A DNA stretch of 64,000 bases from Elusimicrobiota bacterium (GCA_041694815.1 JBGFSC010000006.1:1-64000), one strand, 5' to 3'; shown: positions 20,310-37,933, counted from the stretch's first letter. The notes: generated by a model from the letters alone, not told the origin. Numbers and translations are program-made.

Positions 20310-20393
20310 TGTCGATTTTGGGCGAGCGTTGCTAAAATCCACAACGTTGTTTTCGTACCTTGCGCGCAAGCCAAGGCAACTCGGGAGGTGGAA

Positions 20394-22460
20394 ATGCTTC
20401 TGTCACAGACTCGGCGGTTTTGGCTGGCCGCGCTCGCCGCGGCCCTCCTCGGAACGTCCGCGCATGCGGTAGGGCGTTCCGACATCGAAATGCTGCTGCG
20501 GCGCCGTGACGCCGCGACCGCAAGGAATCTCACCCTTCTCGTCCGTGACCGTGGGCAGAATTTCCTTGCCAAGATCACGGCCGGCAGGCCGGATTCCGAC
20601 AAGGCCGTGCACGCCTGGGCCTTCGCGCATCCCGAGACCGCGGCCGATCTTTACTCCCTCCTGATTCAACGCGGCCGTGCCGGAGCCGAGGCGTTCGCGC
20701 GTCCGGAGTCCACTTATAAGGGAATCGAAGGCCACGCGCAGATGGTGGCCGACGACAAGAAGGCGTCGGCCGAGCAGGCCAACGGCAACGCGGGCAAGCC
20801 GTTCGACGGCTCAAGCAAGAAGGACGGATCGCTTCCCGTCAATACGGGCCCGGTCGCGAAGCCCAACGGCCAGCCGTCCGCCCAGAAGAAACCGGACAAT
20901 CTCCTCGAGCGCTTGAGGAAGTGGATGGATGATGAGCGCGACGGCGTCCCCGGCTCGAGCGGCAAGCGCGAGAGCGGCAAGGTCACCTTCAAGGATGTCA
21001 TCGGCCTCAAGGAAGCCAAGGCGCAGATCATACAGTTCGTCGACATACTCAAGAATCCCGAGAAGTACGCGCGCCTGGGCGCGGAGGTGCCGCGTGGCAT
21101 CCTGATGGTGGGGCCTCCCGGCAACGGCAAGACCCTTCTGGGCAAGGCTCTCGCCAACGAGGCGGGCTTCTCCTGCTTCATCGCGAAAGCGGGTCCTGAG
21201 TTCTCCAGTAAATGGGTCGGCGAGAGCGCGGCCGAGATCCGCCGCACCTTCGAGCAGGCCCGTGCGCAGGAGCCCTGCATCATCTTCATCGACGAATTGG
21301 ACGGCTTGGCGGCGGCCCGCACCGGCATCGACCAGTCCGTGGCCCGCGAATACAACTCCACCGTCGAGCAGCTGCTCGTCGAGATGGACGGCTTGACCGA
21401 GCACAGCAAGAACGGCAAGGTGCCGAAGGTCTTCGTCATCGGCGCCACGAACCGGCCGGACCTTCTCGACCCTGCGGTCATGCGCCCCGGGCGCCTGGAC
21501 CTGCATGTCGTGATCACCTCGCCCGACATCAAGGATCGCGAGGAGATGATCAAGTACTACGTCAAGAAGAAGAAAGTCCCGGCCAACGCCGACGTGGACT
21601 TCAAGATCCTGGCTGGCCGCACCACCGGCATGTCCGGAGCCGCGATCAAGGACTTCGTCAACAAGGCCGCCTTGGTGGCCGCGGAGGAGAACGCCCAGGA
21701 TGTCACGCTCAAGCATTTTCTCAAGGCCCTCGACCGGCTGCAAATCGGCGGCGAGCGGCGCATGGTGCTTAGCGACGCCGAGAAGATCATTACCGCGCGC
21801 CATGAGCTGGGCCACGCCCTGGTCGCCACCTATACGAAGGGCGGCGATCCCGTAGGCAAGATCACGATCATCCCGCGCGACATCGGCGCGCTCGGCGTGA
21901 CGACCTCCGAGCCGCCGGAAGACCGGAAGAATTGGAGCAAGACCCAGCTCCTCAACCAGATCGCCATGGCCATGGGAGGGCGCGTCGCTGAGAAGATTTT
22001 CTACAACGACGAGACCACCGGCGCCGCGAGCGACCTGGAGAATTCCCAGAACCTCGCCTGGCAGATGGTCGTGCGCTTCGGCATGAGCGAAAAGCTGGGG
22101 CCGGTTTCCTTCGTCAAGACCGCCCAGGGCAATTATCTCTCCGGCGGAGCCTCGATGCAGCCTGTTAGCGAAGAAATTCAAAAGCTCATCGACTCCGAGG
22201 TCAAGCGCTTCCTGCTCGAGGCCGAGCAGCGGGCCATGGCCATCCTTACCGCCAAGAAGGATGTCTTGGACAAGGTGGTGCCATACCTGATCAAACAGGA
22301 AACCATGGAGGGTTCGGACCTGCGCAAGCTGCTCAAGGAGTTAGACACGAACCCGGGAGAGTATCCCGTGCAGGACCCCCCGCCGCAACAGCCGGGCTCG
22401 GATAAGCCCTTCGCGACCACCCCGACCAATCTAGGGTGCTCGGCAGGCAGGCTGTATTAA
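20394..22460 (+). CDS. ftsH: FtsH-like AAA+ zinc protease with a cleavable signal peptide and no TM anchor
   Basis: GPPGNGKT, IIFIDELD, ATNRPDLLDPAVMRPGRLD, HELGH, GGRVAE, TTGAASDL. Leader MLLSQTRRFWLAALAAALLGTSAHA; SD ggagg. Confidence 0.9.
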   Translation: MLLSQTRRFWLAALAAALLGTSAHAVGRSDIEMLLRRRDAATARNLTLLVRDRGQNFLAKITAGRPDSDKAVHAWAFAHPETAADLYSLLIQRGRAGAEAFARPESTYKGIEGHAQMVADDKKASAEQANGNAGKPFDGSSKKDGSLPVNTGPVAKPNGQPSAQKKPDNLLERLRKWMDDERDGVPGSSGKRESGKVTFKDVIGLKEAKAQIIQFVDILKNPEKYARLGAEVPRGILMVGPPGNGKTLLGKALANEAGFSCFIAKAGPEFSSKWVGESAAEIRRTFEQARAQEPCIIFIDELDGLAAARTGIDQSVAREYNSTVEQLLVEMDGLTEHSKNGKVPKVFVIGATNRPDLLDPAVMRPGRLDLHVVITSPDIKDREEMIKYYVKKKKVPANADVDFKILAGRTTGMSGAAIKDFVNKAALVAAEENAQDVTLKHFLKALDRLQIGGERRMVLSDAEKIITARHELGHALVATYTKGGDPVGKITIIPRDIGALGVTTSEPPEDRKNWSKTQLLNQIAMAMGGRVAEKIFYNDETTGAASDLENSQNLAWQMVVRFGMSEKLGPVSFVKTAQGNYLSGGASMQPVSEEIQKLIDSEVKRFLLEAEQRAMAILTAKKDVLDKVVPYLIKQETMEGSDLRKLLKELDTNPGEYPVQDPPPQQPGSDKPFATTPTNLGCSAGRLY

Positions 22461-22482: not shown

Positions 22483-23826
22483 ATGGATCAGCCCGCCGGG
22501 GCTTCAGACGACGCGCTCGGGGCTAAAAGCTCCGAGCGCGTCGTCGCTTTTCTGCTGTTTCTCTGGCTTTTTTCCATCATCTGTTCGTATTACATCCTGC
22601 GCCCCGTCCGCAGCGCGCTGATCCTCTCGGAGTTCGGGCCCAAGGCTCTCCCCTGGGCGTACATGGGCACGGCGCTGTTTACCGGCATCGCGGTCTGGAT
22701 TTACACCCAGTTCACGTACCTGCCGCGTAAGACGCTGCTTACCCGCGTGATCCTGTTTTTTATCTCCAATTTCGCCGTGTTGTGGTGGATCGTCAGCAGG
22801 CGCATCCCTTGGTCGGCCGGCATTTTTTACGTCTGGACGGACATTTTCTCCATCATGGCCGTGACGGTTTTTTGGATGTACGTAAACGACGTCTTTCCCT
22901 CGAAGTCCGCCAAGCGGAGCTTCGGCATCATCGGTTCGGCAGGCCCGGCCGGCGCCATCGCCGGCGCCGCCTTGATCAAAATTTTCGTCCGCCGTGTGGG
23001 CGTGGAGCAGATGCTGCTGGTCGCTGGCGGATTCTTCGGCTTAGGGCTGTTGATTTTTTGGGCGCTCGAGTTCCTCACCGGTGGACGATCGGCTGAGCGC
23101 AAGAAGGCGATAGAGAAATTCGAGCAATACAATTTTTCCGAGTTTTCCAGCTTGATGCGTTCCGTGGCGCGATCAAGGGTGCTGACCCTGTTGACGGTCG
23201 CCGTGTGCTTCGAGCGTTTCGCGCCGGATTTCGTTGATTACGTGTTTTCGGCGGCCCTGCATCATGCCTATCCGGACAAGCTCGGCTACGCGGCCGTCTT
23301 CGCCACCTTCGAGTTCTGGCGCAACGTGCTCGTGTTCATCGCCACGCTGTCGCTCACCTCGACCATCCTGCGCACGCTCGGAGTGCACGTGGCCATTACC
23401 GCCGTGCCGATGACCATCCTCATCGGTGGCGCGGCCTACGCGCTGTTCCCGTTCCTGGGGGTGGCCATCGCCTTGAAGGGCTTGGAGGAGGGCCAGCGGC
23501 ATGCGTGGTTTAAGGCGGGCAAGGAAGTGATCTATACGGCCACGCATTCCGACGTCATCTACAAGGTCAAGGGCTATCTCGAGATGTTCCTCTACCGTTT
23601 TTCGCGGGGTCTGGCTGGCCTCATCATCTTGTTCTTGACCAGCGGTCTGGGTCTGGGCGCCGTCGGCGTGGCCTGGGCCGTGGTCCCGCTGGCCGCGCTG
23701 TGGGCGGTCGTGACCTGGAAGCTGGGCAAGGCGTACGAAACCAGCGAGGCCGGAGCGGCCGATAAAGAGGAGCCCGCTCTCCCCTTGGGCAAAGAGGCGT
23801 CAATATCTCAAGGTGCCAGGGATTGA
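22483..23826 (+). CDS. NTT/TLC-family (ATP/ADP translocase-like) MFS-fold transporter
   Basis: About 12 TM; YYILRPVRSAL, FYVWTDIF, FW..VNDVF...AKR.FG.IG..G..G, KEVIY......YKVKGYLEMFLYR match NTT-family signature spacing. Confidence 0.78.
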   Translation: MDQPAGASDDALGAKSSERVVAFLLFLWLFSIICSYYILRPVRSALILSEFGPKALPWAYMGTALFTGIAVWIYTQFTYLPRKTLLTRVILFFISNFAVLWWIVSRRIPWSAGIFYVWTDIFSIMAVTVFWMYVNDVFPSKSAKRSFGIIGSAGPAGAIAGAALIKIFVRRVGVEQMLLVAGGFFGLGLLIFWALEFLTGGRSAERKKAIEKFEQYNFSEFSSLMRSVARSRVLTLLTVAVCFERFAPDFVDYVFSAALHHAYPDKLGYAAVFATFEFWRNVLVFIATLSLTSTILRTLGVHVAITAVPMTILIGGAAYALFPFLGVAIALKGLEEGQRHAWFKAGKEVIYTATHSDVIYKVKGYLEMFLYRFSRGLAGLIILFLTSGLGLGAVGVAWAVVPLAALWAVVTWKLGKAYETSEAGAADKEEPALPLGKEASISQGARD

Positions 23827-30686: not shown

Positions 30687-31661
30687 ATGGCCTTCCCGGC
30701 AACGAGGCTGAGGCGCTTGCGCTCGAGCCCGGCCCTAAGATCGCTGGTCCGCCAGACGCGGCTTGCCGGAGAGGACCTGGTCCTTCCCTTGTTCGTGCGC
30801 CCCGGTAAAGGCGAGCGGCGGCCGATCGCCTCCATGCCAGGGCATTTCCAGTATTCCGTCGACACGGCGGTCAAGGCCGCCAAGGAAGCGGCCGCGGCGG
30901 GCCTCCCCGCCATCCTCCTTTTCGGCATACCGGAGCGCAAGGACTCCAGGGCCAGCGGCGCCTACGCCGCAGGCGGGATCGCGCAGAGGGCGGCCTCGGC
31001 CATCAAGCAGGCCCTTCCCGAGCTGCTAGTCATCGCCGATCTCTGCTTTTGCGAATACACCGATCACGGGCATTGCGGCGTCTTGAAGGGCCGGCGCGTC
31101 GACAACGACGCCACGCTCCTTTTGGCCGGGAAAACGGCGGCGAGCCAGGCCAAGGCCGGGGCCGACATCATCGCGCCCAGCGGCATGATGGACGGCCAGG
31201 TGGCGGCCATACGCTCGGCCTTGGATCGCGCCGGATACAAGAATACCCCGATCCTCGCCTATACGGCCAAGTTCGCCTCCGCTTTTTACGGGCCGTTCCG
31301 GGAGGCCGCCGAATCCCCGCCCTCCTTCGGCGACCGCTCCGGCTATCAAATGGACCCGGCCAACGCGCGCGAGGCAATCCGCGAGGCGGAGCTCGACGTG
31401 CAGGAGGGCGCCGACATGCTGATGGTCAAGCCGGCCATGGCCTACCTCGACGTGCTCGCCGAGTTGCGGCGCCGCTTCCCGCTGCCTCTGGCGGCCTACA
31501 GCGTATCCGGGGAATTCGCGATGATCAAGGCGGCGGCGGCCCAGGGATGGGTCGACGAGCGCAAGGTCGTGCTTGAATCGCTCGCGTCGATCAAGCGGGC
31601 CGGGGCGGATTTCATCATCAGCTACCACGCCTTGGAAGCGGCGCGCTGGCTGGCGGAATGA
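30687..31661 (+). CDS. hemB: Porphobilinogen synthase
   Basis: [39 protein letters not shown]. Confidence 0.97.
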
Positions 31662-31954
31662 GCGCCTCTCGGGCGGCCTTCGCCGCCGGGGCCCTGGCCT
31701 GCTGGGCGGCCTGTCTCGCGCTGGACTATTTTTCCCTGGGCCGGATAGCCCCTAAGGTGCTTTTCATTTGCCGCTTTTACGTGGCGGCCATTTTAATGCT
31801 CACTCCGATGGTGCTCTACTGGGATGAAACGCGATACGCCGTATTCTACGCGGACCGGCGCGTTATATGGAGCATACTGTCGAGCGCCGTCTGCGGCGCC
31901 GCGGGCCTGTTTCTATGGTACCGGGCCTTAGGCGGACCTGATGGAAAAATCTGA
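31658..31954 (+). CDS. Small membrane protein (EamA-like half domain)
   Basis: 3 hydrophobic segments; translationally coupled between hemB and hemL. Confidence 0.6.
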
Positions 31955-33230
31955 TCGTTTATTCCGCCGGGCTTGCGGACTGCTGCCAGGCGGGGTCAAT
32001 TCGCCGGTGAGGGCCTTCAAGGCGGTCGGCGGCACTCCGCGCTTTATCCGCTCAGGCAAGGGAGCTCGAATTTTAGATGAGGATGGGCGTTCCTATATCG
32101 ATTATTGCCTTTCCTGGGGACCTCTTATCCTAGGCCATGCCCACCCCGCCGTCGTCGCCGCAGCGTCTCGCGCACTGAAAAGGGGATCGAGCTTCGGCGC
32201 GCCGACCGAGGCCGAATCGCGGCTGGCCGAGTTGATCCGCTCCGCCTTGCCCTCGATGCGTATGCTGAGGCTGACGAGCTCAGGCACCGAGGCCGTCATG
32301 AGCGCCCTGCGCCTGGCCCGCGCCTTCACGAGGCGTGACTGGATCGTGAAGTTCTCGGGATGCTATCACGGTCATGTCGACAGCCTGCTGGTCTCCGCTG
32401 GCTCAGGCGCTATGACATTAGGCAGTCCGGATTCCGCGGGCGTACCCGAATCTTGGGCCCGGATGACGCTTTCTTTGTCTTACAACGATGTCGCTTCCGT
32501 CGAGAACGCGTTCGCCCAATATGGCGGGCGCATCGCCGCCGTCATCATCGAGCCGCTGGCCGCGAACATGGGAGTCGTGGCGCCGCGCGAAGGATTTCTC
32601 AAGGCCTTGCGCGAGATCACCCGGCGGCACGGGGCCTTGCTTATCTTCGACGAGGTGGTGACCGGCTTCCGTCTGGAGTTCGGCGGCGCCCAGACGCTCT
32701 GGAAGATAGAGCCCGATCTGACCTGCCTGGGAAAAATTATTGGAGGGGGATTTCCAATCGGCGCTTACGGGGGGCGGCGCGAAATCATGGAGATGGTAGC
32801 GCCTTTGGGGCCGGTGTATCAGGCGGGGACCCTCTCCGGCAACCCCGTCGCCGTCGCCGCCGGCATCGCCTGTCTCGAGACTCTCCGCCGCCAGAAGCCG
32901 TACGCGCGCATGGCGCGTCTGGCCTCGCGGCTCGCCGAGGGGTTGCGCCGGCAGGCGTCGGGACTGGGCGTGCCCTTGACCGTCCAGCAATTCGCCTCTA
33001 TGCTGACCCCTTTCTTTCACGCAGGACCGATCAGCGATTACGCCAGCGCGAAGGCGGCCGACACCCGGGCTTACGCCCGATTCTTCCATGCCATGCTTCG
33101 CGAGGGAATATACCTGCCTCCGGCGCAATTCGAGGCCGCCTTCCTGTCAGCCGCGCATACCGAAAAGGACGTCGATCTCAGCTTGAGGGCAGCGGGTAGG
33201 GCGCTGGATTCGCTAACGCGAAGGACTTAG
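31941..33230 (+). CDS. hemL: Glutamate-1-semialdehyde 2,1-aminomutase
   Basis: PGGVNSPVRAF, SWGPLILGH, SGTEA, FDEVVTGFR, GKIIGGG, YQAGTLSGNP. Confidence 0.97.
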   Translation: MEKSDRLFRRACGLLPGGVNSPVRAFKAVGGTPRFIRSGKGARILDEDGRSYIDYCLSWGPLILGHAHPAVVAAASRALKRGSSFGAPTEAESRLAELIRSALPSMRMLRLTSSGTEAVMSALRLARAFTRRDWIVKFSGCYHGHVDSLLVSAGSGAMTLGSPDSAGVPESWARMTLSLSYNDVASVENAFAQYGGRIAAVIIEPLAANMGVVAPREGFLKALREITRRHGALLIFDEVVTGFRLEFGGAQTLWKIEPDLTCLGKIIGGGFPIGAYGGRREIMEMVAPLGPVYQAGTLSGNPVAVAAGIACLETLRRQKPYARMARLASRLAEGLRRQASGLGVPLTVQQFASMLTPFFHAGPISDYASAKAADTRAYARFFHAMLREGIYLPPAQFEAAFLSAAHTEKDVDLSLRAAGRALDSLTRRT

Positions 33231-33824
33231 CGAGACGAGCACTGGAAGGCCTTTGTAGAAAAAAACGAGGACGCCTTCCGGCAAGCCCATGGCGGCTCTC
33301 TGATCGGCGGACGCTTCCTTGACGCCAGCTACCTTGCGGATGGCCATGAGTACGCGCGACTGAGTCGCGATCCCGCTGTCGATGCCCACGAGTATCGCGG
33401 GGGGCGCGGGGATGACGCCGATGCTTACCCGCGGCCTATCTCCGTCATCGTAAACGGGGATCGGTATGCGATTCAAGGCGTCCGCGAATTCCTTCGCGGT
33501 CCGGAGCAGGTCTTCTTCTTTTGGTGCGCCTCCGCCGAACATGGTCGATAGAATTTGCTCCATCAGCTTGTTCTGATCCGAGCCGCGGCCCTGCGGAGCC
33601 GCTTGGATTTTCGGGATTTCCAGAAGCGGCAGTTTCCCATCCGCATCAGCCAGATTTGCCGGTCCTTCCTTTGTATAGCCTTCCGGCAAGGTGAGTAAGG
33701 GCAGTTTTCCCTGCTCGTCGAATTGGGCATCGCCCTGTTGCCTGGCATCCTCCGGGCTTTCGGCGAAGCAGGGAACGCCCGCTAAGAATACGGCGCTTAC
33801 GGCGAGAGTGAATATGGAGTTCAT
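33213..33824 (-). CDS. Secreted hypothetical protein with the SxExA..FD / KLPLL N-terminal module
   Basis: Signal MNSIFTLAVSAVFLAGVPCFA; N-terminal module paralogous to 35667-36278. Confidence 0.75.
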   Translation of the reverse strand: MNSIFTLAVSAVFLAGVPCFAESPEDARQQGDAQFDEQGKLPLLTLPEGYTKEGPANLADADGKLPLLEIPKIQAAPQGRGSDQNKLMEQILSTMFGGGAPKEEDLLRTAKEFADALNRIPIPVYDDGDRPRVSIGVIPAPPAILVGIDSGIATQSRVLMAIRKVAGVKEASADQRAAMGLPEGVLVFFYKGLPVLVSLSPSR

Positions 33825-33858
33825 GCCTCCAGTATGGGCCTTATTCCTCCGCGGCGCA

Positions 33859-33921
33859 TGAGTCCCAAGACCTAAATCGTCTGGGTCCTTGGGCCCCGAG
33901 AATTTAGGACCAAAAGGCCCT
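33859..33921. promoter_or_regulatory. Three tandem palindromic boxes (23-bp period) in a divergent promoter
   Basis: tgagtc-ccaa-gaccta (33859), tgggtc-cttg-ggcccc (33882), taggac-caaaa-ggccct (33905). Confidence 0.75.
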
Positions 33922-33954
33922 CGCGATTTGCTGCCGCTCCGCTAAACTAGTCAT

Positions 33955-35664
33955 ATGAAAAAACTACCCGTCGTACTCGCCCTCTTCACCGTATTATCCG
34001 TCGCGCCCAGCCCACGCTCCTATGCCCAGTTCGGCAATCCGTTCGCCGCGCAGGAGGAGCAACATAAGAAGGTCGTAGGAAGGCTCGGCGAAGCGCTCAA
34101 TGCCAAGCAGTCCGAGATGCCTAAGGATGTTTGGAAGAGAGTCCATGAGGAATATAACCGCCTCCTTAATATGCAGCCCCACAATCCCGAGGCCCAGAAA
34201 TCGATAGATTACCTGCAATGGTTCATCGATCTTCCTTGGGGAAAAGAGACCCAGGATCGATTCGACCTGGCGGAGGCTCAAAAGATATTAGACCGCGATC
34301 ATTACGGGCTCGACCAGGTCAAGGAGCGTGTCATCGAGTACCTGGCGGTCCGCAAGAGAACCGCCTCGCAGAAGGGAGGCATTCTCTGCTTCGTGGGGCC
34401 CAAGGGAACCGGGAAAACCTCCATCGCCAAGGCCATCGCCGAGTCCATGGGCCGCAGCTTCGTCCGCTTGTCTCTGGGCGGAGTCAATAACGAGGCGGAA
34501 TTGCGCGGGTTTCAGAGGACCTATATGGGATCACGGCCGGGCAGCATCATCACCCAGATGAAGAACGCCAAGACGATAAACCCCGTGATGCTCATGGACG
34601 AGGTGGACAAGCTGGCCGATGGCAGTCACTACGGCGATCCTCGGGCGGCGCTCTTGGAGATCCTCGACCCGGAGCAAAATAATACCTTCCGGGACCATTA
34701 TATGGATGTCCCCTATGATTTGTCGAAGGTGCTCTTCATCCTCACGGCCAACGATATGAGGAGGATCCCACCGCCCCTGCTCGACCGCGTGGAGATCATC
34801 GAGTTCTCGGCCTACACGGTGCGCGAGAAGGTGGGCATAGCCCAGCACCATATCGTGGGCCGTAAGCAGCGCGAATGCGGCATCAAGCCGGGCTCCTGCG
34901 AGCTCACCGTCGCGGCCATCGAGCAGATCATCGACGGCTACACGATGGAGGCCGGGGTGCGCAACCTGCAGGAGAACATCGGCGGCGTCTACCGCAAGGC
35001 CGCCGCCTGGGAGGAGACCAAGGGCCTGCCCATCCCCAAGAAGATCGATCATGGGCAGGTGAAGGATTACCTGGGAGCCCCGCGCTACGGCCACCGCATC
35101 ATGGAGGAAAACGGCGTCGGGGTCGGCACGGGCTTGGCGGTCAGCGACAACGGCGGGAGCACGCTCAACGTCGAGGTGCTCAAGGTGCCCGGAGACGGCA
35201 AGGTCCGCACCCGTGAGTTGATGGAGAAGATGTTCCAGGATTCCGCCGACAATGCCGTGGCCTACGTCAAGTCCAAGGCCGTGGAACTGGGCATCGATCC
35301 GGAGGATTTCAAGAAATACGATCTGGAGATCGCGATAGCTCCCGCGATTCCGGTCGACGGGCCTTCGGCGGGTACCGCCATGACCACGGCGATCGCGAGC
35401 AGCTTGAGCGGCCGCAGGATCCGTAAGGGAGTAGCCATGACCGGCGAGGTCACGTTGACCGGCAAGGTGCTCCCGATCGGTGGGCTCAAGCAGAAGGTGA
35501 TGGCGGCCGAGCGCATGGGCTACGACACGGTGCTTTTCCCCGCCGCCAACGAGCATGAGCTCGAGGAGATTTCCCCCGAAGTGCGCAAGAAGATGACATT
35601 GGTGCCCGTCAAGACGATGGACGAGGTCTTGAATCTGGCCTTGGAGCCCCGGCCCCAGGCCTGA
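33955..35664 (+). CDS. lon: Lon protease lacking the LON_N substrate domain, with signal peptide
   Basis: LD.DHYGL..VKERV.EYLAV, GPKGTGKTS, MDEVDK, ALLEILDPEQN..F.DHY, DGPSAG (Ser), PIGGLKQK (Lys). Leader MKKLPVVLALFTVLSVAPSPRSYA. Confidence 0.92.
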   Translation: MKKLPVVLALFTVLSVAPSPRSYAQFGNPFAAQEEQHKKVVGRLGEALNAKQSEMPKDVWKRVHEEYNRLLNMQPHNPEAQKSIDYLQWFIDLPWGKETQDRFDLAEAQKILDRDHYGLDQVKERVIEYLAVRKRTASQKGGILCFVGPKGTGKTSIAKAIAESMGRSFVRLSLGGVNNEAELRGFQRTYMGSRPGSIITQMKNAKTINPVMLMDEVDKLADGSHYGDPRAALLEILDPEQNNTFRDHYMDVPYDLSKVLFILTANDMRRIPPPLLDRVEIIEFSAYTVREKVGIAQHHIVGRKQRECGIKPGSCELTVAAIEQIIDGYTMEAGVRNLQENIGGVYRKAAAWEETKGLPIPKKIDHGQVKDYLGAPRYGHRIMEENGVGVGTGLAVSDNGGSTLNVEVLKVPGDGKVRTRELMEKMFQDSADNAVAYVKSKAVELGIDPEDFKKYDLEIAIAPAIPVDGPSAGTAMTTAIASSLSGRRIRKGVAMTGEVTLTGKVLPIGGLKQKVMAAERMGYDTVLFPAANEHELEEISPEVRKKMTLVPVKTMDEVLNLALEPRPQA

Positions 35665-35666
35665 TC

Positions 35667-36278
35667 ATGAGCAAGGCCACGGCAAGCTACTGGCTCGCCT
35701 TAGCCATTATCGCGCTCTCTGCGGTTGGCCGCGCGGCGGAGACCGCCAAAAGCGACGAGGAGGCCAAGCAGCAGGCTGACCTCCAATTCGATGAGTCGGG
35801 CAAACTGCCCCTACTTACCTTACCGAAAGGGTATAAAGCGGAAAGACCGGCGATGGGCAGTCTCGGAACAGCTCCTCTTAATATCACCGATGCGCAGGAC
35901 AAGCTTCCGCTCTTGCCGATCCCTTCACCGGCTCCAGCCCGACGCGCCGGGCCGAACGTGCTTGAAGGGCTTATCGGCAGCTTGATCGGCTCCGCCATCG
36001 GCAGCCATGTATTTGTCAATGTCTTTACCCCGATGTTCTCGGCGCAGCCGCTGCTGATCCCCATCGTCGCGGCTATTTTCGGCATGTCCATGGGGACTCG
36101 CATGGCCATGCCGATGGCGATGTTGATAAGGCGTCGCTGGCCCATGATCGTTATGCCCCTGTTGCTCGGAGCCGTTTGCTTCCTGATCCCTCCCATGGGT
36201 GGAGCGATATGGGGAATGATGATTCTGGGACCGCTATTCGCCCGCCTTTTGGCTAAACTCGGGTCTTTAAAGAAGTAA
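35667..36278 (+). CDS. Secreted/membrane protein with the SxExA..FD / KLPLL module and a hydrophobic Met/Gly-rich C-terminus
   Basis: Signal peptide; 2 bp after lon; several C-terminal hydrophobic helices. Confidence 0.75.
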   Translation: MSKATASYWLALAIIALSAVGRAAETAKSDEEAKQQADLQFDESGKLPLLTLPKGYKAERPAMGSLGTAPLNITDAQDKLPLLPIPSPAPARRAGPNVLEGLIGSLIGSAIGSHVFVNVFTPMFSAQPLLIPIVAAIFGMSMGTRMAMPMAMLIRRRWPMIVMPLLLGAVCFLIPPMGGAIWGMMILGPLFARLLAKLGSLKK

Positions 36279-36292
36279 AAAACGGCGGGGCT

Positions 36293-37933
36293 CTACATCC
36301 GTTCCGGCGCCGAAACGCCCAATAGCCCCAATCCCTCGGCGATCACGGCGCGCACCCCTCCGCAGAGAGCCAGGCGCGCGCGTGACAACTCCGCTTGAAC
36401 CGCGTCGACGACGCGGCATTTCTCGTAGAAGGGGTGGAACAAGCCGGCGAGCTCCAGCAGGTAGTTGGCCAAGAAATGCGGGGAGAGTTCCGCCTCGCAG
36501 CTGCGCAGGGCCGCCGGAAACCAGGCCGTCTTGGCCAATAGGGCGCGCTCCTCCGGGGAGCGGAGCATCGCCGCGTCGAATTCCGCCCTCTTCTCTCCCA
36601 GGACCTTTTCCGCCTCCCGAAAAATCGAGCAGATCCTGGCGTGCACGTACTGGACATAATAGACCGGATTCTCCTGGGACTGCTTCTTGGCCAATTCCAG
36701 ATCGAAATTCATGTGGGAGTTGGCCGTGCGCAGGGCGAAGAAGAATCGGCAGGCGTCCCGGCCGACTTCCTCGACCACCTCGCGCAAAGTGACGAACTCG
36801 CCGGCGCGCTTGGACATCTTGACCGCCGTCGTTCCGCGGTAGAGGTGCACCAGCTGGTGGATGATGGCGTGGAAGTATTCCGGGGGACGGCACAGCGCCG
36901 CGATCGCCGCGCGCATGCGCGGCACGTAGCCGTGATGGTCGGCCCCCCAGATGTCGACGAGCTCCGTCCAACCGCGGTCGAACTTGTTCTTGTGGTAGGC
37001 GATGTCCGGAAGGAAGTAAGTGGGATTGCCGTCCGATTTGACGAGGACGCGGTCCTTGTCGTCGGCCCCCGCCTCCAGCTGGCTGGTGCCGAGCCACACG
37101 GCCCCCTCTTTTTCGTATACCATCCCGCGCTTCCTTAAGTAGTCGAGGGTCGACTCGACGGCCTTGGAGGCGTAGAGCTCGCTCTCGCGGAACCAGCGGT
37201 CGAAGGCGACCCCGAAGGCGTCCATATCCGCCTTGTGGGAGGCGAGCATCAGCTCCATGGCGTAGCGCCCCCATGCGTGCTCATCCCAGCCAGCGGCCTC
37301 GGGAGGGGCTGCGGCCGCGACCTCCTTTAGGTATTCGCCTTGGTAGCCGTCCGTCGGGACTTCCGCGGGCTTTCCTTGAAGCTGCAGGTAGCGCGCTTGG
37401 GCGGAGCGGCCGAGAAGCTCCGCGCGGGCACCCCCGTCATTGATGTAACATTCGCAGCCGACCTTATGGCCGATGCGGCGGAGTATCTTGGCCAAGCTGT
37501 CGCCCAGCGTGGCTCCCCGCCCGGAGGCCAGGTGCAGCGGGCCGGTGGGATTGGCCGAGACGAACTCGATCAAGAGGGAACGGGCCGCGACATCCGGGTC
37601 GCGCCCGTACTCGCCGGGCTTGGCGAGCAGCGCGCGTAGATTTTCCGCCAGCGCCTCCGGCCGCAGCTTGAAATTGACGAAGCCAGGCGCGACGGCCTGC
37701 GGCGTCTCGACGCCGCCCAAATCCCGCAGTGCCTCGGCCAATTGGGCCGCTACCTCCAGCGGCTTGCGGCCCATGGCCTTGGCCAGTGAGAGGGGCCAAG
37801 GCAGGGAAAAATCCGCGGGGACGTGGGCCGGCGCCGGAGCGAATGTGAAATGCCGGGGGGCCTCGACGCCTTGGCCCTGCGCCCAAGCCTTAAGCCGCGA
37901 GGCCGCTTCCCGTTGAACCCTTTCGATGATCAC
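36293..37933 (-). CDS. argS: Arginine--tRNA ligase
   Basis: EFVSANPTGPLH, GADHHGY, KMSKRAG, NPVYYVQYVHARICS, LGVSAPERM. Confidence 0.97.
   Translation of the reverse strand: MIIERVQREAASRLKAWAQGQGVEAPRHFTFAPAPAHVPADFSLPWPLSLAKAMGRKPLEVAAQLAEALRDLGGVETPQAVAPGFVNFKLRPEALAENLRALLAKPGEYGRDPDVAARSLLIEFVSANPTGPLHLASGRGATLGDSLAKILRRIGHKVGCECYINDGGARAELLGRSAQARYLQLQGKPAEVPTDGYQGEYLKEVAAAAPPEAAGWDEHAWGRYAMELMLASHKADMDAFGVAFDRWFRESELYASKAVESTLDYLRKRGMVYEKEGAVWLGTSQLEAGADDKDRVLVKSDGNPTYFLPDIAYHKNKFDRGWTELVDIWGADHHGYVPRMRAAIAALCRPPEYFHAIIHQLVHLYRGTTAVKMSKRAGEFVTLREVVEEVGRDACRFFFALRTANSHMNFDLELAKKQSQENPVYYVQYVHARICSIFREAEKVLGEKRAEFDAAMLRSPEERALLAKTAWFPAALRSCEAELSPHFLANYLLELAGLFHPFYEKCRVVDAVQAELSRARLALCGGVRAVIAEGLGLLGVSAPERM

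Follow-up and report, generated by a model that had tools for sequence, protein, structure and literature searches.

The window analysed here, a stretch of 64,000 nucleotides (nt) from an Elusimicrobiota bacterium (GCA_041694815.1 JBGFSC010000006.1:1-64000), contains an islet of three genes (33213..36278) between hemL and argS. At its centre lies a Lon protease of the LonA type that begins with a signal-peptide-like leader and is devoid of the LON N-domain; it is flanked by two small genes, here called A and C, whose products share an N-terminal module and then diverge completely. Judged from sequence comparison and phylogeny, this Lon is not a lone oddity but a member of a leader-bearing clade of elusimicrobial LonA proteins that is newly found here. 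Our favoured reading, with a probability of about 0.4, is that all three proteins are exported and that A and C are linked to the headless Lon through the segment they share. The genome, assembled from a metagenome, comprises 2.77 Mb in 54 contigs, with an estimated completeness of 97.8%.

The Lon gene (33955..35664, + strand) is an open reading frame (ORF) for a protein of 569 amino acids that consists of the leader, a three-helix bundle, an AAA+ module, and a protease domain. Pfam places AAA (PF00004) at residues 144-284, Lon_lid at residues 307-350, and Lon_C (PF05362; E = 3.6e-61) at residues 363-564. The AAA+ ATPase core (34384..34806, +) carries K154 and T155 of Walker A and D215 and E216 of Walker B, and the Lon_C proteolytic domain (35041..35646, +) carries the catalytic residues Ser471 and Lys514; all of them belong to the approximately 110 columns in which 28 aligned LonA proteins do not vary and which are without exception retained in the window Lon. 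The profile of endopeptidase La (TIGR00763) matches with 633.4 bits (cut-off 608.05), with only profile positions 249-795 aligned, and the LON N-domain (PF02190), which is the substrate-recognizing domain of LonA, was not found by Pfam at E values up to 1. LonA chains in the Protein Data Bank (PDB) match residues 47-567 with E values of 1e-138 to 1e-144. Solved chains that cover the same extent (523-555 residues) come from entries with six chains each (3m6a, 4ypl, 6on2, and 6v11), which indicates that a LonA of such length is able to assemble. The genome encodes a second Lon, the canonical Lon1 (contig C3; 800 amino acids), which has a normal N-terminus and is 48% identical to the window Lon.

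The leader of Lon (residues 1-24; 33955..34026, +) comprises an M-K-K n-region, a hydrophobic core of 14 residues, and S-Y-A followed by Q, with the site S-Y-A-Q at residues 22-25. There is no in-frame ATG, GTG, or TTG between codon 1 and codon 55. Because mean hydropathy remains below 1.6 in every run of 19 residues throughout the protein, the core falls short of a typical membrane anchor, and the N-terminus looks more like a cleavable signal. By inspection, the N-termini of all three islet proteins consist of a short hydrophobic leader and, behind it, a small-x-small site, and the features typical of Sec substrates (a positively charged n-region, a core of 10-15 residues, and small residues at -3/-1) are discernible by eye in Lon, A, and C alike. 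From these features, the positive-inside rule, and the -3/-1 rule, export is predicted for all three. An earlier note on this DNA, made without database searches, had already described three genes at this span, with a Lon that bears a signal peptide and no N-domain; the three ORFs, the arrangement of KK, core, and SYA-Q, the missing PF02190, and the start of the TIGR00763 alignment at profile position 249 bear this out.

The nearest relatives of the window Lon are proteins of other Elusimicrobiota that comprise approximately 800-990 residues, are 54-60% identical to it over the AAA+ and protease part, and are publicly named either "endopeptidase La" or not at all (P0006-P0047). Motifs were counted in the 39 clade proteins of at least 800 amino acids that begin with M, using patterns that were written after the sequences had been viewed. 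A small-x-[AS]-Q site is present at residues 18-36 in 36 of the 39 proteins, RR occurs within the first 25 residues in 27, and 37 carry one [FY]DG within the first 330 residues, always at the same conserved place; among 66 other full-length LonA proteins from the same search, neither the site (0/66) nor FDG (0/66) was encountered. Leaders also open the clade genes of genomes G188, G212, G206, G028, G012, G020, and G008. The typical architecture of the clade is a leader, an Ala/Pro-rich linker of about 100-150 residues, the conserved FDG, and an N-domain that opens with A-P-V-L-x-L-x-x-x-F-F-P-G, and PF02190 is recorded for most members. Since the proteins of this clade begin with a Sec- or Tat-like signal peptide, they are predicted to work outside the cytoplasm.

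In a maximum-likelihood tree of the region shared with the window protein (IQ-TREE; 71 rows, with the rows of G020 and G001 left out), the window Lon falls inside a clade of 46 rows with full support (100/100 in ultrafast bootstrap and SH-aLRT), and the genome's own Lon1 groups with other LonA proteins in a separate cluster of 25 rows. The window Lon is sister to P0039 (93/77), which may be a long-branch join; its exact position inside the clade is uncertain because of its long terminal branch (0.91). The leader is ancestral in this clade. The Ala/Pro-rich linker, the FDG, and the N-domain are all missing from the window Lon, and because other clade members keep the N-domain, the window Lon represents a derived deletion and not a Lon that never had one. 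It has lost approximately 370-400 residues, which correspond to the linker and the N-terminal substrate-binding domain. A different departure is seen in P0044 (793 amino acids), which is located deep in the leader-bearing clade and has the leaderless N-terminus of a canonical LonA; a chimeric assembly or a reversion could account for this.

In the order as a whole, most of the clade genes found belong to one other family, and the remaining five genomes of the family that includes the window yielded none. The GC content of the islet (0.56-0.62) is lower than that of its flanks (0.63-0.73); together with the distribution of the clade, this fits an acquisition from another lineage of Elusimicrobiota, with loss elsewhere as a possible alternative. 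At seven loci of clade Lon genes in other genomes, the adjoining genes are unrelated from one locus to the next.

Gene A (33213..33824, - strand) and gene C (35667..36278, +) each encode 203 amino acids. In A, the leader (residues 1-21) is followed by the module (residues 22-75; 33600..33761, -) and a small alpha/beta domain (residues ~100-200); in C, the leader (residues 1-24) is followed by the module (residues 25-90; 35739..35936, +; delimited by alignment to A and codon comparison) and by hydrophobic helices rich in Gly and Met (residues ~96-202). BLASTP aligns the two proteins in their N-terminal parts only (40 of 79 residues identical, E = 1e-18), and without the leaders there are 34 invariant columns over 54 residues of A. 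The module, 54-66 residues long, holds the motif Q-F-D-E-x-G-K (FDE.GK) and two copies of K-L-P-L-L-x-[IL]-P. In the DNA, it forms an inverted repeat with two arms of 108 nt (33658..33765 and 35744..35851; 77%). Over the 52 module codons, nonsynonymous divergence (dN) is 0.25 and synonymous divergence (dS) is 0.95 (dN/dS 0.26), and substitutions are saturated in the leaders and in everything downstream of the module. Such a ratio combined with saturation outside the module is far beyond chance and indicates an old duplication, translation of both frames, and a segment maintained by purifying selection; by this comparison, A and C derive from an old inverted partial duplication. The paralogy recognized by the earlier note is thus real and limited to the N-module.

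The C-terminal parts of A and C are unrelated. In AlphaFold2 models from single sequences, the module is predicted to be disordered in both proteins. In A, residues 1-95 have a predicted local distance difference test score (pLDDT) below 50, and blocks within residues 101-200 form a small alpha/beta domain (pLDDT 61-89). In C, residues 96-202 are modelled as helices, with three hydrophobic stretches and four GxxxG motifs. A is therefore predicted to end in a small soluble domain and C in glycine-zipper-like membrane helices, a division that had been anticipated in the earlier note and that these models favour. The structure of the A domain has its best match by VIA-align in a Pol X palm, which is nucleotidyltransferase-like (Z = 7.9; root-mean-square deviation 3.8; 92 residues aligned), followed by other chains of the nucleotidyltransferase fold and by BON and OsmC chains at Z = 5-7. 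Foldseek returned nothing at E values up to 0.001 (best 0.016), and no nucleotidyltransferase motif was discernible in A by eye; the domain is left without an assigned fold.

Outside the islet, A and C are orphans. Pfam, NCBIfam, PADLOC, and PHROGs yielded no meaningful family match; in the genome itself, the two proteins match only each other, and 40 related genomes gave only matches at chance level (e.g., E = 0.0016 in G021). A word-indexed search of 5.8 billion clusters returned only the queries themselves, and a profile of the module searched against 1.84 billion representatives recovered A, C, and three unrelated repeat proteins (ankyrin, Rib-like, and DUF11-like). A metagenome scan for the module produced 600 pattern matches and no relatives, the ESM Atlas gave no usable match for A or C, and a sequence search of the PDB gave none for A. 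The earlier note had proposed that A and C might be adaptors replacing the missing N-domain of Lon, and that confinement of the module to these two genes, without interaction or co-expression with Lon, would speak against such a link. Confinement is what the searches of 1.84 and 5.8 billion entries found, and co-expression with Lon is suggested for C only, by the 2-nt spacing between the two genes.

Two genomes encode a protein of 210 amino acids with a leader and Gly/Ala-rich hydrophobic helices at its C-terminus (G031, locus L011 1331-1963, +; G039, locus L012 1471-2103, -). It adjoins a LemA-type gene, matches residues 34-191 of C with an E value of about 1e-4, and is without the module; the likeness to C is probably compositional. 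The idea that the module derives from the N-terminal part of clade Lon proteins (FDG ... PVLxL) was rejected: three hidden Markov models of that part did not match A, C, or any of 25,281 stop-to-stop ORFs even at an E value of 1000, and hhalign probabilities were 0.2-0.65%.

The gene order around the islet is as the earlier note described it, with hemL (31941-33230, +) upstream and argS (36293-37933, -) downstream. Gene A and hemL are convergent, and their 3' ends overlap by 18 nt (33213-33230). Only 2 nt separate the stop codon of Lon from the ATG of gene C, and gene C and argS converge across a gap of 14 nt, with a 13-nt palindrome at 36300-36317. The divergent region between A and Lon (33825..33954; 130 base pairs) contains an imperfect palindrome of 18 nt (33871-33888 and 33891-33908; 78%), which is a possible operator. 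Between 33815 and 33965, a repeat finder detected this palindrome and a 7-nt pair but no direct repeats, and no sigma-70-like site is present in the intergenic region; the three-box divergent promoter of the earlier note could thus not be recovered.

In genomes of the same family, the blocks hemB-orf98-hemL and argS-rsfS-pilT are kept, but the interval between hemL and argS is not. It harbours a lipoprotein-like gene in G002, a HAD-type hydrolase in G004, and 5.4 kb of sequence in G019; in G001, G005, G007, and G015, no argS is present within the 7 kb fetched beside hemL. These differences among relatives indicate that the islet occupies a variable slot, which is the answer to the synteny comparison that the earlier note had recommended. 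Between hemB and hemL, a hydrophobic ORF of 98 amino acids (31658-31954, +) is approximately 39% identical to counterparts in G002 and G005; because it is conserved in genomes of the same family, it is probably a real gene for a small membrane protein.

The genome encodes further AAA+ proteins with leaders. Located 11-13 kb upstream of the islet in the same window are a leader-bearing FtsH-type protease (20388-22460, +; Pfam AAA and Peptidase_M41), which begins with T-R-R-F-W-L ... A-H-A and is without the usual two-helix anchor, and directly after it a TLC-type nucleotide carrier (22483-23826, +; PF03219, 40.4 bits, cut-off 21). The same two genes stand side by side also in G001 and G005. In intracellular bacteria, carriers of the TLC type are known to import ATP. 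A genome-wide scan with PF00004, followed by reading of the N-termini, revealed four double-AAA+ ATPases of the Clp/Hsp100 type with signal-peptide-like leaders (L053-L056, at C2:22715-25135, C15:3073-5367, C25:55338-58088, and C9:74955-79676), in which Pfam recognizes AAA, AAA_lid_9, AAA_2, and ClpB_D2-small. The gene on contig C25 is located 5.4 kb from a second TLC-like gene (C25:48785-49972). The genome also encodes a normal cytoplasmic FtsH, Lon1, and a ClpB/C-like protein. TatC (186.3 bits) and TatA (63 bits) are encoded by adjacent genes on contig C20.

The FDG motif recurs in the linkers that precede the AAA domain of other leader-bearing proteins, as KPFDGS in the FtsH-type protease (residues ~136-141) and in two of the Clp-type proteins (L054, residue ~150; L056, residue ~74); in A and C, its place is taken by FDE, at the start of the module. 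It may be a processing or docking element. Across the genome, [FY]DG[SGD] occurs in the first 240 residues of 12 of 546 leader-like ORFs versus 8 of 2,057 others, a suggestive excess of FDG after leaders that has to be read with the small numbers and the post hoc pattern in mind. An x-F/Y-D-G-S/G motif located 10-25 residues after a leader was also seen in a 220-residue protein with hydrophobic C-terminal helices (C6:95231-95893), a helical protein of 447 residues (C14:28043-29386), an M13 peptidase (C14:5445-7604), and a WD40 protein (C19:25129-26364), the last of which ends in an AEERFK..W tail.

The proposed coupling of A and C to the headless Lon starts from the anatomy of the islet, the membership of Lon in the leader-bearing clade, its intact catalytic residues, the orphan status of A and C, and the selection on the module; it supposes export, available ATP, and contact between Lon and the module. 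The variable slot between hemL and argS is occupied by a lineage-specific islet of three genes. Because all three proteins have leaders, they would reach one and the same extracytoplasmic compartment, where the shared segment might be the linear element to which the headless Lon docks or which it recognizes. A and C could then be dedicated Lon substrates, with the segment as degron; alternatively, the soluble A and the membrane-anchored C could be stand-ins for the lost N-domain, with the segment as handle. The start of gene C only 2 nt after Lon and the divergent position of gene A across 130 base pairs with a palindrome are consistent with such a unit. That AAA+ machines are exported gains wider support from the leader-bearing FtsH beside its TLC carrier, a pair kept in G001 and G005, and from the four Clp/Hsp100-type ATPases with leaders; the presence of TatA and TatC also fits. 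ATP could be supplied by TLC-type carriers or by ATP-rich surroundings from which it crosses the outer membrane.

Several points weigh against this proposal. According to textbooks, the periplasm contains no ATP. The prediction of export is drawn solely from features of the sequences; the leader of the window Lon has KK instead of twin arginine, and the TAT_signal profile of Pfam did not match any of five N-termini (three clade proteins, FtsH, and the window Lon) at E values up to 10, although short profiles of this kind often miss true cases. Of the 19 genomes with a clear clade Lon, 12 have a strong TLC match (E ≤ 1e-59), versus 11 of the 62 others, a tally over 81 genomes of the order in which thresholds were set post hoc and related genomes are not independent; if members of 49-52% identity are counted (G188, G212, G037, and G008), it becomes 12 of 23 versus 11 of 58. 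A TLC carrier is clearly not obligatory for the Lon clade. The terminal branch of the window Lon (0.91 versus a median of 0.061) is possibly a sign of relaxed constraint. At the seven loci of other clade Lon genes, there is no neighbour resembling A or C (tblastn, E > 1). At third codon positions, the GC content (GC3) is 0.67 in A and 0.70 in C but 0.82 in Lon, which speaks against a shared history. Moreover, the module is private to A and C, so its coevolution with Lon cannot be followed.

The alternative that survives best, although we regard it as rather unlikely, sees in A and C exported orphan proteins of the envelope with no tie to Lon other than adjacency. Their shared segment would then act independently of Lon, for instance by docking to another partner in the periplasm or envelope, and the inverted duplication would have arisen incidentally when a rearrangement brought Lon into the slot. 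The differing contents of the interval between hemL and argS in G002, G004, and G019, the GC3 values of A and C, and the lack of such neighbours at any clade member elsewhere all favour mere adjacency. However, gene C begins 2 nt past the stop codon of Lon, both genes with the module directly flank the one Lon without N-domain, and the module is encoded nowhere else in the genome.

A bolder extension, which we consider doubtful, is that ATP-dependent machines of this lineage unfold and degrade proteins outside the cytoplasm on a broader scale, with KLPLL, and possibly also FDG and FDE, as a docking code. At least six leader-bearing AAA+ machines (FtsH, Lon, and the four of the Clp/Hsp100 type) would take part, as would the entire LonA clade in related genomes, and the headless Lon would be aimed by partners acting in trans. 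TLC carriers would either bring ATP into the periplasm or be the sign of a life in ATP-rich surroundings.

It is less probable still that the leader is an uncleaved anchor that would hold Lon and its clade on the cytoplasmic face of the membrane, where they would act as tethered quality-control proteases in the manner of FtsH or archaeal LonB and have the usual ATP supply. Such an arrangement would suit the textbook restriction of ATP to the cytoplasm and the full conservation of the ATPase motifs; membrane-anchored AAA+ proteases exist in FtsH and LonB, and the long Ala/Pro-rich linkers of the clade could be tethers. However, KK or RR lies N-terminal to the core, which under the positive-inside rule places the body outside; the core comprises only about 12-14 residues; and the small-x-small-Q site that follows it in 36 of 39 proteins is needless in an anchor.

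Decay of the islet, with a horizontally acquired clade gene that lost its 5' half through a rearrangement and with A and C as fast-evolving leftovers or as young genes without joint function, is quite improbable. The lower GC content of the islet (0.56-0.62 against 0.63-0.73 in the flanks), the long branch of Lon, the absence of the clade from the five other genomes of the family, and the orphan status of A and C are compatible with a remnant. However, the Lon frame is open and retains all invariant residues, and its GC3 of 0.82 is similar to that of the adjoining genes; the module has a dN/dS of 0.26 at a nearly saturated dS, and the C-terminal domain of A is predicted to fold from its single sequence (pLDDT 70-89). 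The polymorphic effector cassette envisaged in the earlier note, with an N-terminal trafficking module, variable toxic C-termini, and maturation or control by Lon, has very little in its favour: the conserved N-module with unrelated C-termini and the four GxxxG motifs of the glycine-zipper-like membrane part of C, a feature of some pore-forming effectors, recall such systems, but the module is present in two proteins only, A and C matched no family of toxins, immunity proteins, or defence systems, and inspection of the window ORFs revealed no secretion-system, Rhs, PAAR, CdiB-type, or mobile-element genes adjoining the islet.

Textbooks place AAA+ proteases in the cytoplasm, or facing it, on the ground that the periplasm is devoid of ATP. 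A LonA clade with leaders and conserved ATPase motifs, together with the leader-bearing FtsH and Clp/Hsp100-type proteins and the TLC carriers, challenges this rule. If these enzymes are not exported, there would have to be an unrecognized way of anchoring them; ATP-driven proteolysis outside the cytoplasm would, if true, be far more novel than the LonA variant by itself. A natural Lon without N-domain and two private neighbours with a common module would also represent a compact system for studying how a Lon that has no substrate-binding head finds its targets. Among the papers listed by full-text searches of the literature, none was seen to describe a signal-peptide-bearing LonA; the passage search of PMC2605481 returned only an unrelated passage on subtilisin.

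Among the known systems, S16 peptidases of the SepM/YlbL type provide a precedent for a Lon-type protease domain outside the cytoplasm. They have PDZ domains and no AAA+ module, and the profile of the SepM family (NF041438) reaches only 33.9 bits with the window Lon (cut-off 200). Archaeal LonB and bacterial FtsH are likewise AAA+ proteases tied to the membrane or envelope by hydrophobic sequence. In LonB, the transmembrane helices lie within the AAA+ module, FtsH has a pair of helices at its N-terminus, and the catalytic bodies of both are cytoplasmic, whereas the window Lon has one short N-terminal leader with a cleavage-type site. It is not a LonB, because the LonB profile TIGR00764 matches with only 108.9 bits against a cut-off of 516.6. 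The FtsH-type protease in the same window is also an AAA+ protease with an export-type leader, and the KPFDGS of its linker resembles the FDG of the Lon clade; it differs in belonging to the M41 family and in having a carrier next to it, which the Lon islet does not.

With canonical LonA (TIGR00763; 3m6a, 6u5z, and 7p6u), the window Lon shares the three-helix bundle, the AAA+ module, the lid, and the S16 Ser-Lys domain at 46-60% identity; it differs in the missing LON N-domain, the signal-peptide-like leader, and its presence as a second copy beside Lon1. Members of the leader-bearing clade ("Lon2") have 800-990 residues, the linker, FDG, the N-domain, and RR, whereas the window copy has none of these, and KK in the leader. 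Nevertheless, they are its closest counterparts: the leader with its small-x-small-Q site, the nested position in the tree, and the 54-60% identity are common to both.

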